A DNA stretch of 64,000 nucleotides from an uncultured virus (IMG/VR IMGVR_UViG_3300021399_000104) (lineage: Duplodnaviria; Heunggongvirae; Uroviricota; Caudoviricetes), in the IMG/VR virus record IMGVR_UViG_3300021399_000104. The stretch is one strand, 5' to 3'. The notes under the pieces were generated by a model. That model made no database searches. It saw nothing but the letters and a program-made list of their open reading frames with translations, and was not told the origin of the DNA. A program made the translations under genes and the position numbers. Below, one piece after another: positions 4,820 through 58,881 of this stretch. Every line of letters starts with the position of its first letter. Position 1 is the first letter of the stretch.

Positions 4820-5085
4820 ATTTTCTTCTTTTTATTTTTGTTAAAACAAACATAGTTATTACCACAAGCATACCCACTACCCCAGAAAACTACATATTTG
4901 CAATCATAGCAATCTTTATTGATAGTGTTTCTTTGTCCGTAGTCCATAATTACAATATTTAACTTCTTGTGATTTTATTTCCATATTTATCTTCTTCGTC
5001 TTTAATGAAAAAGATATAACTGAAAAGAGAATCATTGTTTTCTATAAAGTAACTTAAATCGTATTCCGTTATTTTAGCTTCAGTA

Positions 5086-5200
5086 ATAGTTACAAATTTC
5101 ATAGAAAATTTTAGAAATTGCTTTCCACGTCATGAATAACGCGAGGGTGAACTACAACACCCGAGACACCATTTGCAAAAGCATTTGGCTTACATTTTCT
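5086..5200 (-). ncRNA. omega RNA (reRNA) scaffold overlapping tnpB 3' end
   Basis: Expected position at right end; conserved in stand-alone copy at 57436-57550. Confidence 0.7.
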
Positions 5201-6346
5201 GAGGATATTATAAGAACCATTTACATCGGCATTAATCTGTGTACCAGTGGAAGAAATAAATAGGCCTCTCTTCACCCGGTTTCCCAGGTAGGTGTCATGC
5301 TTTCCAATCTCCTCCTGATCAAGAAAACTACACTTACTGGTATATTCTTCACTGGTTATCTCCATATTAATACCCGCCAAATCACATTTATACTGAAGCA
5401 TCTGAATGAACCGGTAAAATGGAATTAAGCAAAAGTTCTGATTATTAACCTTACCCAACTTAGTGTCTTGTTTCCATCCCTTATTATTACCAACAATGAG
5501 TGTGTTGATATTTTCGGAAACTAAGTGATTCACTATTTGTCGGGTTGCTTTGTGGAAGTAATCAGATACCCGATTGGTTCTTTCTCTATTAATCCGACCA
5601 GTCCTCCGGCTTGTTTTCCATTCACTGTCTTTTAGGTAAGATTGAGCTTTAGCCATCCTCTTACTGTACTGGTGATTAATAGATTTTACTTTCTTCCCTG
5701 AGATAGCAACTGGTGTATGACCAGGCACATTACTGGTTAGAGTGGCCAAGTTATTGACCCCTAAATCAATGGCGGCATATCTGTTGTTATCTGGTTTCTT
5801 AGGTACATCTGGAACAGTATAGACAATCTCGACAGCCAGGTAACCATGTCTCGGAATTATCCTAACTTGATTAAGGTTATTGGATGTCACTCTTCCCTTC
5901 CTAAGCTTAATTTTAATATCTTCCTTCTCTAATTTCACATACCCCTTCCTTAGCCACGGTTTACTTATGGCTATGTTAGTGTAGATAACCGGAAATCGTC
6001 CATCCTTCTCTAGGTAGTGTGGAATCTTAGGCTTTCCTTTATACTTTCCTGGATTAACCTTGTAATCTTGGTTAGCAGCAAAGAAAGACTTAAAATTTTG
6101 ATCGAGTACCCGAAGAGTCTGCTGTGATGTCTTGGCAGGTAGAGCTCGATAGTCCACTTGTTCAGAGTCTTGAAATTTTTTCTGAAGGTCGATGTAGCTA
6201 AGGTACTTTCCAGAATTAAAGAATTCCTGTCTTACCTGATATAAGGCAGCATTATACAGATTCTTGGAAAGTCCACAGAGGGTATACAATCTTTGATAAA
6301 GCTTCCCATTACCCTCCTTTACAATCATATTTTCGACTAGCTGCAT
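5111..6346 (-). CDS. tnpB: TnpB RNA-guided nuclease
   Basis: LYNAAL, AIDLGVNN (RuvC-I), SEEYTSKC, INADVNG (RuvC-III). Confidence 0.95.
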   Translation of the reverse strand: MQLVENMIVKEGNGKLYQRLYTLCGLSKNLYNAALYQVRQEFFNSGKYLSYIDLQKKFQDSEQVDYRALPAKTSQQTLRVLDQNFKSFFAANQDYKVNPGKYKGKPKIPHYLEKDGRFPVIYTNIAISKPWLRKGYVKLEKEDIKIKLRKGRVTSNNLNQVRIIPRHGYLAVEIVYTVPDVPKKPDNNRYAAIDLGVNNLATLTSNVPGHTPVAISGKKVKSINHQYSKRMAKAQSYLKDSEWKTSRRTGRINRERTNRVSDYFHKATRQIVNHLVSENINTLIVGNNKGWKQDTKLGKVNNQNFCLIPFYRFIQMLQYKCDLAGINMEITSEEYTSKCSFLDQEEIGKHDTYLGNRVKRGLFISSTGTQINADVNGSYNILRKCKPNAFANGVSGVVVHPRVIHDVESNF

Positions 6347-6899
6347 CTTTTATTATCCTTTCTGTCAATCTCTTGGATCGACGTTTACCATAGAGACGAG
6401 CACAGAATGATGTAATTATAGAAACGAAATCCTGCATTAAATCTTCTTTCTCACCTTCTACGTTATTTACCACTTCTATTGATCGATTATTAAGCTGTAA
6501 GAGCTTCTGAATGTAGTTTAGACCAAACCGAGCTAACCTATCCTTATGCTCAACAACAATAACGTCAATATCAGTGTTTAAGAGGAGAGATTCCAGTTTC
6601 TTTCGTTCATCATTTAAACCAGAACCCACCTCTTTCACTACCTTTGCCACCTTATATCCCTTTGCATTACAGTAGGAGATGAGACGTTCTGCCTGTGAAT
6701 CTAAGTTAGCCTTATTCTCCGAACTGGATACTCTGGCATAGATAGCATAGGTTTTTTCTTTCTCTTTTACTTCATCGGTAATCCAAATATGACCTGTTGC
6801 GTCTGTCTCATATTTGACCTTACCTGATTTAACCCAATTCCAGACAGTCCTATAGTGTACTCCCTGAATCTTAGCATACTTTGATATCTTATACTTCAT
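6309..6899 (-). CDS. tnpA: IS607 TnpA serine recombinase
   Basis: N-terminal HTH, YARVSS catalytic motif, EVGSGLN, DRLARFG, LYGKR. Confidence 0.95.
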   Translation of the reverse strand: MKYKISKYAKIQGVHYRTVWNWVKSGKVKYETDATGHIWITDEVKEKEKTYAIYARVSSSENKANLDSQAERLISYCNAKGYKVAKVVKEVGSGLNDERKKLESLLLNTDIDVIVVEHKDRLARFGLNYIQKLLQLNNRSIEVVNNVEGEKEDLMQDFVSIITSFCARLYGKRRSKRLTERIIKDAASRKYDCKGG

Positions 6900-7089
6900 A
6901 GTTTTTAGTATTTTCACTAATAAGGTATATAAAACCTAATAAACGCAAAATATACCATTTCATAGCTGTTTTTCTATAATTTATCTAATAAATTGAATAT
7001 AATCAGTTAAATTTTAAGATACTCCAATGGTTGTCAAATTCACCTGTTGGATCGTCTATATAAATCTTCTTCGGTGTTTCCATATTATT

Positions 7090-16846: not shown

Positions 16847-16950
16847 GGGAATGTAGCTCAGAGGCAAGAGCTTGGGAATTAATGACTTTATTGTAGGTCA
16901 CCTGTGAAAGTACAATATCGAGAGCGTGGGTTCGAATCCCATCATTCCCA
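16847..16950 (+). tRNA. tRNA-like RNA with aberrant 54-nt central domain; no anticodon assignable
   Basis: GGGAATG/CATTCCC acceptor, GCTC-AGAGGCAA-GAGC D arm, GTGGG-TTCGAAT-CCCAT T arm. Confidence 0.7.
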
Positions 16951-17620: not shown

Positions 17621-18067
17621 ATGACAATAAATTGGAAAAGTGAAGAATATAAGATTGAAGATATTTTTATTAATGGAAAAACAATAAAAACAGTCTTATT
17701 TACGCCCTCTCACCCAGATGATAGCTTTAAATGGGTAGGGAAAACGTATTATACTAATCCTATCATAAAGGGAATTTTTTGGATTGTTTCTAAATTTAGT
17801 CCATTATCACTGGAAGAACTTTTATATAGAGGTGATCTTTTGGAGGATGGTGCTATGAGCGATACAAGACTAATCGATACTGCCTATTACTACTTCGATA
17901 AAGAAAGTCATGTCGTTTATACTAAAGCTAAAGTAACTATTCAATATACTACTTCGGCTAATGACTATGATAATTTTAGGTTCGACACTGATGAAGAAGC
18001 AAAACAATTTATGAACACTATAATTACCAAAACAAATGAAGGAACGAACTGCACAGGAAGAAGCTAA
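17621..18067 (+). CDS. Hypothetical protein
   Basis: 148 aa, preceded by TTCCTTATAA motif. Confidence 0.7.
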   Translation: MTINWKSEEYKIEDIFINGKTIKTVLFTPSHPDDSFKWVGKTYYTNPIIKGIFWIVSKFSPLSLEELLYRGDLLEDGAMSDTRLIDTAYYYFDKESHVVYTKAKVTIQYTTSANDYDNFRFDTDEEAKQFMNTIITKTNEGTNCTGRS

Positions 18068-56215: not shown

Positions 56216-56278
56216 TTTCTCATATATAAGGAAAAGCAAAGAGAGGCTACCTTTTAATTTAGATAACCTCTCTTAAAC

Positions 56279-56473
56279 TTATTCTTTTTTACTACCTCCC
56301 AGGAAAATTTCCTTTAGGAGGCCCTCGTTGTCCTGGATGAACCAACCAACCAAGACTATGATTCCAATCCAGCCCAGGATGCTGAGCCAGAATATTTGAT
56401 GAAATCCACTGGCCATAAGAGCCAGGGTCAGAATTAACAGGATCCAACCTGTTATTTTTACTAAACTTTTCAT
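56279..56473 (-). CDS. Small two-TM membrane protein
   Basis: 64 aa, hydrophobic. Confidence 0.65.
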   Translation of the reverse strand: MKSLVKITGWILLILTLALMASGFHQIFWLSILGWIGIIVLVGWFIQDNEGLLKEIFLGGSKKE

Positions 56474-56514
56474 ATTTTTTATTTTTAGTTAAACATTACG
56501 AATAAATATTTTTA

Positions 56515-57165
56515 TTTGCCTTAGACTTCTCTTCTAAGGATTTTTGATATAAAACGACATGCTTCTTGTTCGTACTCTTCGTCTACTTATTCTTCACATT
56601 GTCGTAAGTGATACTGTAAACATCACTCCCATTATATCACGATCTTATACTTAAACTATAATCATTTACAGTGGTTATATTTCTTTCTAAGTTCAGGTAA
56701 TCGATTTACCCTACCTCGTTTTGAAAGATTTCTCTAGTCCACCTTTATCAGATGTTTTCAATCTTTCTTGGTATCAGAACTTTTTCAGTCCTAATTATTT
56801 TATTTGTTATATTGAGTAGAAGTTAGACTAAAACGTCCTTACTCCTTACTCTGTTTTGAATTCCACATTTTTTTTATAAATCTTTATTCCGCTCGCCGCC
56901 TAACATACAGAAATGAAGGCTTAACAACTTCCTTCCTGAAATTAATCAGTTCTGTATGGTGTGACTACTTTATACTCGCAGCGTCGAGTCCAGCATGGCC
57001 AAACTGGTGATTCGCTATGATCTGACTTACCTCACACAACCTTTAGTATGGTCATTTAAAGATATTTCTACCTTTCTCATAGCTAGTGTCCTAAACGAAA
57101 CACGCCAAAAATAAAACGAGGTAAACTTAATTACCTCCTTTAGTGGCCCTTTTCAAGCCAATTCT
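56515..57165 (-). ncRNA. Large structured ncRNA candidate
   Basis: No ORF of 60 aa or more, promoter at 57170-57183, many local and long-range helices. Confidence 0.6.
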
Positions 57166-57203
57166 TTTATCATATATAAGGAATTGAGTGGTATTTGAGA
57201 AGG

Positions 57204-57283
57204 AAAAAATAAGGGGAACTATTCTCACGAACGGTTCCTCCTCGGTTATAAACTTTTTGGAAATAATAGATTTTGTTATTCAT
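57204..57283 (-). ncRNA. Small RNA candidate C
   Basis: Promoter 57284-57297, GUUC-GUGA-GAAU-AG hairpin, U-tract. Confidence 0.55.
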
Positions 57284-57361
57284 CTATATATAAGGAATTG
57301 AGCCGGAAATGAGAATAAAAAAAAATAGAAAACTTTTTAAGGTTCCCTATTAGGTGTTCAG

Positions 57362-57709
57362 AATACTAACTTTCATCTAGATTCCAACTAGATTCTCCGA
57401 TTCTCTTAATTAGGATTGTCGGTATGTTGGCCCTTATAGTTACAAATTTCTATAAAATCTGCTTTCTACATTTTTATGATAAACATAAAATGTGTGGATG
57501 AACTACAACACCCGAGACACCATTTGCAAAACGCATTTGGCTTACATTTTATAGCCGGCCATATTATAGGTGTCTTGTTCCTCTTTGAACTAAATGATTC
57601 ACCAATATGACCGGCTAATTCGTTATCTAAATTTTATAATACTAACTTTCATCTAGATTCCAACTAGATTCTCCGATTCTCTTAATTAGGATCGTCGGCG
57701 TGTTGGCCC
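57362..57709. repeat. 72-bp imperfect direct repeat (57362-57433, 57638-57709) flanking mini-IS
   Basis: Identical except 3 substitutions. Confidence 0.9.
57436..57641 (-). mobile_element. Non-autonomous IS607 derivative carrying omega RNA scaffold
   Basis: 57436-57450 = 5086-5100; 57499-57550 = 5148-5198 plus 1 nt; left-end-like AGTAT|..TAAAATTTA. Confidence 0.8.
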
Positions 57710-57993
57710 ATATACACCACCCAGTTAGTATCTGAAATTTTATTTTATGTTGTTTATTGTATGTTTTGAATAATGTTATTTCGTTATCACTATAATTGAT
57801 TATACAAGTTTTTAAGCTTTATAATCTTATTCATTTTACTGAATACATAATGGATATAATCTGGTTTCGATATCACCAATAATTATAGTTCTGATAACAA
57901 TTTTATTAATATGAATTTTGTGTCCCAAATAAAAATTTATATTCTTCCATATATTAGGAATTGGGGGCCTCTAAATTTCCTATCCCCCTTTAG

Positions 57994-58320
57994 TCTCTCG
58001 GTTGGGATTCGAACCCAAGACCCACAGCTTAGCTTACCACTATAGTTTTCACTACCCTATATTTTAAATATAAGTTTGTGGTCTGGACTATTTCTAAACC
58101 ATGCTATTTCTAGTTTAGGTAATCCCCGTATAGTCTCTACGCACTGCACCTATCTCTAGGGCTTGGCACGTCGTTGGCTTATTTATTTCTAAACTTAGCT
58201 TTCGTCGTTTAGGGGATTTTCTACATTCTCAGTTTCCCAAGATGCACTCCTATTTTTCGTAAGTTTTTAAGCCTACGAAAGTTTAAAGGCTGTTGCTCTA
58301 TCCAGCTGAGCTACCGAGAG
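57994..58320 (-). tRNA. tRNA-Arg(TCT) split by group I intron
   Basis: Exons 58320-58286 and 58032-57994 form a canonical cloverleaf with loop CTT^CTAA. Confidence 0.9.
58033..58285 (-). ncRNA. 253-nt group I intron without ORF in tRNA anticodon
   Basis: Follows U, ends in G, AGAGACTA and AATAGTCC P7 elements. Confidence 0.85.
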
Positions 58321-58408
58321 ATCATTTTCTATTTTTCCATATATTAGGAAAAGGAGGCTTCTAAATTTCCTTAATACAGAGTCCACAGAAAAATAAAAGA
58401 AGAGGATT

Positions 58409-58744
58409 TTACTCCTCCTCCTTCTCTTGTTGTTCTAGTCCATTCATTTCTTCTTGGACGATAGTTTTTCTGGAATCATCCATAATTAGATACAGTCCAA
58501 ACAGTGTAAATCCACAGACTATCATTATACTTATGGCCCAGAATGAAACGCTATATGAGCCAAACAGATCACACATACACATGATCGTAAAAGTCACATG
58601 TGTTATTAATCCACCAATCCAAAACTTATTAATTGGCTTGGGTAACTTTTCTTTTCCAAGACATCCAACATAGAATCTCAGAAAAAAGTACATTAACACG
58701 ACAAATCCTGTTTCTGCCGCAAGTAATCCAAAAAAGTCTTTCAT
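58409..58744 (-). CDS. Membrane protein
   Basis: Three hydrophobic segments. Confidence 0.7.
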   Translation of the reverse strand: MKDFFGLLAAETGFVVLMYFFLRFYVGCLGKEKLPKPINKFWIGGLITHVTFTIMCMCDLFGSYSVSFWAISIMIVCGFTLFGLYLIMDDSRKTIVQEEMNGLEQQEKEEE

Positions 58745-58881
58745 CTTTCTTTTGTTTTATAATTAAACATTTATTTTTCTTTCATATATAAGGAATTCAT
58801 TATATTATTAACCCAGAAAAAAAAAATAAGGGGAACTATTCTCACGAACGGTTCCTCCCTACTTTACCGGAATACTCTTCA

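Follow-up and report, generated by a model that had tools for sequence, protein, structure and literature searches.

The window (the whole 64,000-nt, or 64-kb, stretch of gut-phage DNA analysed here) contains a 197-nt locus that is probably a non-autonomous IS607 mini element. Its omega RNA would serve the homing of the element itself, with the resident TnpB acting in trans. The locus combines homology to a resident autonomous element, a fit to the omega-RNA scaffold of that element's family, a GTAT at its left end, contigs in the RNA libraries of two studies and a repeat-element-repeat layout. In the proposed mechanism, the serine recombinase of the full element would move the mini element in trans, and the resident TnpB would bind the mini-element transcript and take as its guide the 16-20 nt that follow ...AACUAU. 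TnpB would then cut the GTAT-flanked joint left where the mini element was excised or is absent, and recombination with an element-bearing sister or co-infecting genome would restore or spread the mini element, a form of restorative homing.

The resident element, whose TnpB gene lies about 51 kb from the mini element, has the following parts.

5086..7018, minus strand: autonomous IS607-type element, with its left end at 7018 after GGAGTAT and its right end at 5086
6309..6917, minus strand: serine recombinase TnpA, an intact open frame that, like TnpB, carries catalytic motifs (Pfam Resolvase N-terminal domain, 5e-19)
5111..6346, minus strand: TnpB, 411 aa, an intact open frame (Pfam OrfB_IS605, 1e-23; Cas12f1-like TNB, 2e-13)
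5068-5085, minus strand: the full element's own guide, TACTGAAGCTAAAATAAC, adjoining the right end

The resident TnpB contains the motifs IDLG (RuvC-I) and NADVNGS (RuvC-III), a shifted RuvC-II Glu within SEEYTSKC, and no CxxC zinc-finger pairs. A TnpB class with a C-terminally shifted RuvC-II glutamate has been described (10.1101/2023.08.09.552727), and the resident protein fits this shifted-Glu class, to which it is assigned by motif and not by alignment to a solved structure. Because a PDB sequence search with TnpB returned only an AI-designed nuclease (residues 22-274), its catalytic residues were read from the motifs and the published class description. A candidate second target of the full element's guide at 17920-17937 (2 mismatches) was treated as chance, since TTTA stands before it where GTAT would be needed, and 1 of 100 shuffles also produced a second match. 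The same IS, with a 100% identical TnpB and the same right flank, is present on an 18.3-kb metagenome contig (L176), which by this identity would be the phage itself or a near-identical strain assembled in another public assembly, and which is estimated to stop short of the 57-kb locus.

The features of the 57-kb locus are as follows.

57436..57632, minus strand: protein-less IS607-type mini element, 197 nt
Last base 57436, minus strand: right end of the mini element, ...GAAATTTGTAACTAT, 15 of 15 nt exact against the full element
Start 57632, minus strand: left end of the mini element, directly after AGTAT
57436..57566, minus strand: omega-RNA scaffold, consisting of stem A (GCCA/UGGU), core hairpin GGGUG-8 nt-CAUCC, hairpin 2 and hairpin 3, then AACUAU
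57567..57632, minus strand: left-end part with a long hairpin (GCCGGUCAUAUUGGUG / CACCUAUAAUAUGGCCGGC), occupying the place of tnpB coding sequence in the full copy
57357..57438: direct repeat 1, adjoining the right end; its far end AGTAT is the second GTAT site
57633..57714: direct repeat 2, the upstream copy, adjoining the left end and preceded by GGTGTAT
57416..57435, minus strand: predicted guide after ...AACTAT, AAGGGCCAACATACCGACAA, made up of the opening 20 nt of direct repeat 1
57694..57715, minus strand: GTAT (57712-57715) and the mismatched guide copy, which differs at positions 2, 12 and 13, and also at 19 (57693)
57949..57960, minus strand: promoter-like motif TTCCTAATATAT, oriented towards the locus and separated from the upstream repeat by about 240 nt

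The initial annotation, made from the sequence alone, had described a protein-free element of ~200 bp that repeats the IS607 right end (15 nt exact) and the scaffold core (one inserted base), and what it stated about the sequence is confirmed throughout. The right end GAAATTTGTAACTAT has exactly 2 copies in the 64-kb window (5086-5100 and 57436-57450, both on the minus strand), and the scaffold core 23-mer is exact at 5148-5170 and 57499-57521 only, with a chance expectation of 0 in 64 kb. Over a wider scaffold block of about 54 nt, the mini element differs from the full copy by one C-to-U change and one inserted base, the latter disrupting the tnpB reading frame. The single ORF of at least 30 aa on either strand of the mini element is a 44-aa frame antisense to the scaffold, and the 197 nt hold no credible gene. 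Both left ends read AGTAT followed by nnTAAAATTTA, a short match (14 of 16 nt) beyond which local alignment of 57567-57632 with the left-end region of the full copy gave no similarity. Where the scaffold of the full copy overlaps the tnpB coding sequence, the mini element has an unrelated hairpin instead, and the fold of the whole mini element has z = -4.5. The terminal TAT of the mini element, common to element and flank, is probably the crossover core. With both ends resembling those of an autonomous, serine-recombinase-encoding element in the same genome, 57436-57632 is probably a non-autonomous IS607-family element. The window holds one copy of it, and blastn of the mini-element unit against the fetched loci (L001-L183 and later ones) matched the scaffold part alone. 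DNA run X2 also contains a variant of the right part of the mini element (on 57434-57510, with changes at 57467, 57471, 57477 and 57480) that continues into 80 nt unlike the window, which suggests another mini-element copy with a different guide in the same community.

The scaffold was compared with its family by means of a covariance model, R1, built from 21 TnpB-linked scaffolds, with the window's own full copy as 1 of the 21 rows. The mini element matched R1 with 62.3 bits (E 5.6e-9) over model positions 1-127, its full length, and ended at AACUAU, a match somewhat favoured because the full copy is among the training rows; the full copy itself scored 94.6 bits, and the next matches in the 64 kb scored 15.8 and 15.1 bits. 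Hairpins were also counted sequence by sequence: in 22 of 23 TnpB-linked and 10 of 10 gene-less copies, the stretch that starts at the core folds into three hairpins and closes with about 6-7 nt, the last of them AACUAU. Stem A, upstream of the core, covaries, with UA, CG and GU at one pair and changes on both sides in 8 of 13 sequences. The core substitution of the mini element (C to U, giving a G-U pair) recurs in three relatives that all have an intact TnpB (L084, L088 and L089). The proposal in the initial annotation of a stand-alone omega RNA of the resident TnpB family is thus supported by the model match, and the covariance comparison of scaffolds that it had suggested, in the form of the 21-row model, finds the mini element fitting over the full length. 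A search with all 4227 Rfam models, which presumably include RAGATH-18, gave no match at gathering score to the omega RNAs and nothing relevant at E up to 10 for either copy. Intron_gpI likewise had no match in the mini element at E up to 10, and 197 nt is judged too short for a group I catalytic core. RAGATH-18 has been tied to IS607 TnpB (PMC13565253).

Hairpin 2 of the mini element is wholly different in sequence from that of the resident full copy, with its pairing kept. The initial annotation had noted this correctly; the selection on RNA structure that it suggested from this is not supported as stated, because hairpin 2 has nearly the same sequence in L120, a TnpB-linked metagenome element, and is therefore a lineage variant that provides no evidence for local compensatory change. 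The L120 TnpB is the closest TnpB relative (61% identical to the resident TnpB), and the CAUCC core variant is common to L120 (metagenome contig, about 1453-1586) and the mini element. In blastn, the mini element was 85% identical over 80 nt to L120 and 96% identical over 55 nt to the resident element. Since both hairpin 2 and the core variant match L120, simple deletion from the resident copy does not explain the mini element, which would be either a mosaic or a descendant of an older form of the element. Compatibility of its RNA with the resident TnpB is an assumption, because hairpin 2 is of the L120 type and not of the resident type.

The putative TAM named in the initial annotation, GTAT, proved a sound candidate. 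A related IS has inserted independently in three different contexts (L001, L002 and L003), among which similarity starts exactly at GTAT and stops at AACTAT. GTAT is thereby found beside the left end of all 5 insertions examined, these three and both window elements (GGAGTAT then CTTAAAATTTA at the full element; TTAGTAT then TATAAAATTTA at the mini element). The sequence itself cannot tell target from element, and GTAT is taken as the TAM by analogy with a C. botulinum IS607 element, in which the recombinase targets the left-end TAM, TGGG, and TCGG closes the right end (10.1101/2023.11.20.567912). By the same analogy, the window pair would be GTAT (left) and CTAT (right), with an AT or TAT core. 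According to a 2026 review (PMC13565253), IS607 elements end in GG, insert at GG and have a G-rich TAM. This canonical GG core is seen neither in the window elements nor in L001-L003, which end in ...AACTAT and have GTAT as their left flank, and the branch comprising 5086-7018 and L001-L003 is, as judged from these ends, an AT-core subfamily.

Relatives were collected by TnpB similarity (89 confirmed in IMG/VR, of which 80 were kept, with 35-59% identity) and by an 18-nt core motif, which yielded 21 loci in IMG/VR and at least 121 in metagenomes, 80 of the latter with flanks. Copies were called gene-less when the available upstream DNA (roughly 700-1600 nt) held no TnpB, with loci cut by a contig end or lacking a right end left out. 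Nine gene-less copies with a right end were thus obtained, namely L090 and L100 among the 21 IMG/VR motif loci, and L123, L124, L127, L134, L156, L166 and L183 among the 80 metagenome loci; copies retaining only a C-terminal TnpB piece are L093/L103, L131, L154, L162, L171 and L175. A full TnpB lies about 49 kb from L090 on one 183-kb phage contig, and L183 and L177 likewise share a contig. Arrays are absent: each of the 21 viral loci and of the listed metagenome loci has a single motif match. The gene-less L090 and L127 and the truncated L154 (a short TnpB C-terminal piece) have in common a 5' module about 120 nt upstream of the core motif, not derived from tnpB, which consists of AAAACCTAAAAG..., a short hairpin and then AAATGCGAAAA, and which could belong to a lineage of mini elements as its left-end or promoter module.

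Searches for relatives of the 57.3-57.7 kb locus matched only a tRNA-like piece in GenBank phages (blastn), found none in IMG/VR with exact repeat and scaffold patterns and none in metagenome contigs with a 25-nt repeat pattern, and gave 33 pattern matches to the neighbouring protein in IMG/VR, none of them confirmed. As these three collections gave no relatives, no relative with a perfect GTAT-flanked match to the window guide was found in them either, nor was an empty site, that is, the locus without the mini element. With neither an empty site nor a relative of the locus in these contig collections, we can only infer mobility at the 57-kb site.

The mini element lies between two 82-nt repeats, which are alike over 74 nt when counting begins, in minus-strand direction, at the base that follows TAT. 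The first 18 nt of the guide, AAGGGCCAACATACCGAC (57418-57435, minus strand), has one other match in the window at up to 3 mismatches, located at 57694-57711 on the minus strand, with 3 mismatches and GTAT before it. The mismatches at positions 2, 12 and 13 between the guide and the GTAT-flanked near-target of the initial annotation are real and non-randomly placed, and position 19 can be added: the repeats differ at positions 2, 12, 13 and 19 of 74, and the probability of all four falling within the first 19 is P = 0.0034. The 'new guide' that had been singled out is not special in itself, since any new insertion site gives one.

In other sequencing runs, strains vary within the same segment of the repeat. 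Across runs X2, X3, X5 and X8, repeat variants occur at positions 1, 2, 12 and 13 only (57424 and 57434 in X2; 57699 in X8 and X5; 57710 in X2 and X5; 57711 in X8), and no differences were reported in the 54-nt identical part of the repeats in these four runs. In DNA run X2, the right-end repeat carries the upstream-type letters at 57424 and 57434, and the far-flank repeat carries the guide-type letter at 57710, in contigs too short to phase the repeat copies and from a run that may hold several strains. In X3, the guide beside the right end is this window's GTAT-flanked upstream copy with no differing letter, the repeat copies being unphased; if both repeats of the X3 strain are identical, self-sparing is not required. 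The X5 cycle (see below) is consistent with the window's guide type, with 2 of the 4 differing letters listed and the other 2 deduced.

The 74-nt flanking repeat spans one GTAT site to the next, and is therefore not a duplication made by insertion. At the left junction the element seems inserted at the segment's final GTAT, at the right junction at the GTAT in front of the segment, and all four junctions of the repeat-element-repeat layout are present in DNA run X2. The best account of this layout is the neutral alternative that the initial annotation had offered, recombination between insertions at two neighbouring GTAT sites. The layout would have arisen by unequal recombination within the element between two genomes that carried the element at different GTAT sites, one just in front of the 74-nt segment and one at its end. 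The upstream repeat, placed after GTAT, would be a self-target if identical to the guide, and the confinement of the four differences to guide positions 2-19 may be a trace of selection against cutting, through escape alleles or self-sparing. The clustered differences could also represent two diverged parental alleles, for reasons unrelated to TnpB. The gene-less copies L090 and L100 have no flanking repeat. A cloverleaf drawn from the repeat and upstream flank (10-bp closing stem) was rejected, with a weak fold (z = -2.1) and no fitting tRNA model.

The promoter that the initial annotation had placed at 57947 corresponds to the motif at 57949-57960, which does point towards the locus; a link to the mini element is plausible, although no RNA-library contig covers the leader (57740-57940). 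In all, TTCCTWATATAT has six exact copies, every one of them on the minus strand within 56222-58795, which precede a tRNA gene (21 nt downstream of the copy at 58339-58350), small ORFs and non-coding blocks, and which are likely promoters of one phage class that serve a series of small transcription units. Sigma-70-type sites nearby (9, with 5.6 expected) carried no weight in this reading. Downstream of the copy at 57172-57183 is a block of about 520 nt (56624-57145) that has no ORF of at least 40 aa, starts at a hairpin and T-run (57118-57137), is covered by RNA-library contigs of X3 and X5, and is an expressed non-coding block. At 58000-58320 (minus strand), 253 inserted nt (58033-58285) interrupt a tRNA-Arg(UCU)-like gene between anticodon-loop U34 and C35, the 5' exon ending in U and the insertion in G. 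Intronless look-alike tRNA genes in sequencing runs fix the junction (58032 joined to 58286), and an X5 RNA-library contig (58033-58202) stops exactly at the 3' end of the insertion. The split gene was uncalled by ARAGORN and by Rfam (tRNA and group I intron models), and the insertion is likely a self-splicing intron of a type missed by these models. ARAGORN called no tRNA in the whole window, including the sequence at 16847-16950 (plus strand), which has an Rfam tRNA match of 46.2 bits and a 48-nt insertion in the anticodon/variable region.

Evidence for transcription comes from X3 and X5, metatranscriptomes of different studies, each with one 306-nt contig on 57413/57435-57714; these contigs are strandless and without RNA ends, with DNA carry-over possible. 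Both libraries are empty on 57204-57404 and 57740-57940, which are covered by DNA run X2, and these silent flanks serve as an internal control against plain DNA carry-over, although DNA can be present. Run X8 has no contig over the mini element. The earlier proposal that the phage expresses the guide thus gains the RNA-library contigs of two studies with silent adjoining spacers; strand and ends are not given by the contigs, with which an antisense or a read-through transcript would also agree. Each contig closes into a 276-nt cycle (306 = 276 + 30) with overlapping ends; in the X3 record, 1-101 lies on 57610-57710 and 102-306 on 57435-57639, with a joint from 57710 back to 57435. Logan contigs derive from k = 31 graphs, in which an isolated cycle is reported with a k-1 (30-nt) overlap. 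Because 54 nt of the repeats are identical, exceeding the k-mer, such a cycle is expected from a linear molecule, and therefore no circle or array is needed.

The least probable account of the locus takes the cycles literally, the true molecule being a circle or a tandem array (element plus repeat, n times) of which the window is a collapsed 1.3-copy version. The linear window layout already closes the cycle in the k = 31 graph, the X3 joint is unreported in DNA runs X2 and X8, and no listed viral or metagenome locus has a second motif match. On the other side are the overlapping contig ends of X3 and X5 with the X3 joint, and a published proposal that arrays form by serial duplication of omega-RNA segments (PMC10691335); repeated duplication of a unit of omega RNA plus guide would look like the first step proposed for the origin of CRISPR-like arrays. 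It is also unlikely, to a clearly lesser degree, that the locus is an inert relic, a decaying IS607 remnant transcribed only with the surrounding minus-strand small-RNA units, its RNA unused by TnpB and its repeat differences neutral between parental genomes. The continuum elsewhere from full to truncated (the loci with TnpB C-terminal pieces) to gene-less copies would suit decay, as would the replaced 5' scaffold part, the non-resident type of hairpin 2 and the position amid promoter motifs and RNA genes. A relic would however not be expected to keep a 54-nt scaffold block near-identical to the resident copy (1 substitution, 1 inserted base) while neighbouring segments diverged, nor to retain both ends and all three hairpins; the sole core substitution is one also seen beside intact TnpB genes, and the repeat differences are confined to the guide segment (P = 0.003).

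The same guide-segment differences bear on a weapon recruited by the phage, which would keep the trans guide in order to cut competitors' alleles, with its own upstream copy protected by seed mismatches and with the benefit falling to the phage and not the element. The guide and GTAT-flanked alleles do vary between strains at the same few positions, the X3 guide-side allele is letter-for-letter the window's GTAT-flanked copy, the window's guide allele recurs in X5, and the mismatch within the window takes in seed position 2. The present data nevertheless cannot tell this from ordinary element homing: the repeat copies of other strains could not be phased, the contig searches gave no relatives and hence none with a perfect GTAT-flanked guide match, and the gene-less L090 and L100 are without the flanking repeat. 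A dedicated weapon is therefore regarded as very unlikely, and cutting of a related phage's allele, as put forward in the initial annotation, amounts to ordinary TnpB homing. The allele pattern may have a broader meaning, that of a live gene-drive/resistance contest in a natural phage population, in which TnpB cutting at co-infection shapes the guide and GTAT-flanked polymorphism, and the phage or the element excludes rival alleles by means of a guide 51 kb from the nuclease. Variation of both alleles at the same four or five positions, with a mismatch within one genome that includes seed position 2 and an X3 guide equal to the window's upstream copy, is compatible with such a contest, which is viewed here as unlikely. 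Homing of a mini element served by the resident TnpB is the reading retained in the comparisons that follow.

Free-standing homing endonucleases of T-even phages cut the element-lacking allele at co-infection and spread by repair, and resistant alleles differ at the recognition site (marker exclusion; PMC13565253). The proposal for the window is likewise a phage-borne selfish nuclease, but recognition would use an RNA guide encoded 51 kb from the nuclease gene. CboIStron, an IS607-family element of Clostridium botulinum (10.1101/2023.11.20.567912), like the window system combines TnpA(S) with TnpB, has a left-end TAM that is the recombinase target, and has a right end that stops in a near-copy of the TAM (TGGG versus TCGG in CboIStron; GTAT versus CTAT in the window). 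In the same report, a laboratory mini-IS without both genes was excised in trans. The window system differs from CboIStron as described there in that the mini element has no group I intron (no Rfam match), the core is AT/TAT instead of GG, and the RuvC-II glutamate of TnpB is shifted. Gene-less PATE-like elements of the IS200/IS605 type in Geobacillus stearothermophilus often encode an omega RNA and need TnpA and TnpB in trans (PMC10055086). They resemble the window mini element in being minimal and non-autonomous, with both ends kept and an omega RNA, but are described as single-stranded DNA elements with a Y1 HUH transposase and hairpin ends, whereas the mini element belongs with a serine-recombinase element.

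Stand-alone mobilised omega RNAs without effector and transposase, in genomes that also hold effector loci, are reported to act in trans, with a role described as unknown (PMC10691335, summarising Altae-Tran et al. 2021). Like these, the window copy has its scaffold at a transposon end, no nuclease or transposase gene, and an effector copy in the same genome. Unlike those in that summary, it is in a phage, is of the IS607 type with a TAT core, and is flanked by a duplicated target differing only in the guide segment, known here from sequence. A literature search, within a limited library, turned up no account of gene-less guide elements of the IS607 type from bacteriophages. The nuclease, recombinase and gene-less guide element within one phage genome form a natural test case, and confirmed cutting would provide field evidence that TnpB guides exert selection in phage populations and would define an AT-core (GTAT TAM) IS607 branch with a compact scaffold. 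The mini element belongs to a known kind, stand-alone trans-acting omega RNAs being already in print, and what sets this copy apart is its support from RNA libraries, the GTAT-flanked near-target that it brings along and a variation between strains that is confined to the pairing segment, three features that make TnpB-driven selection in a phage population testable.
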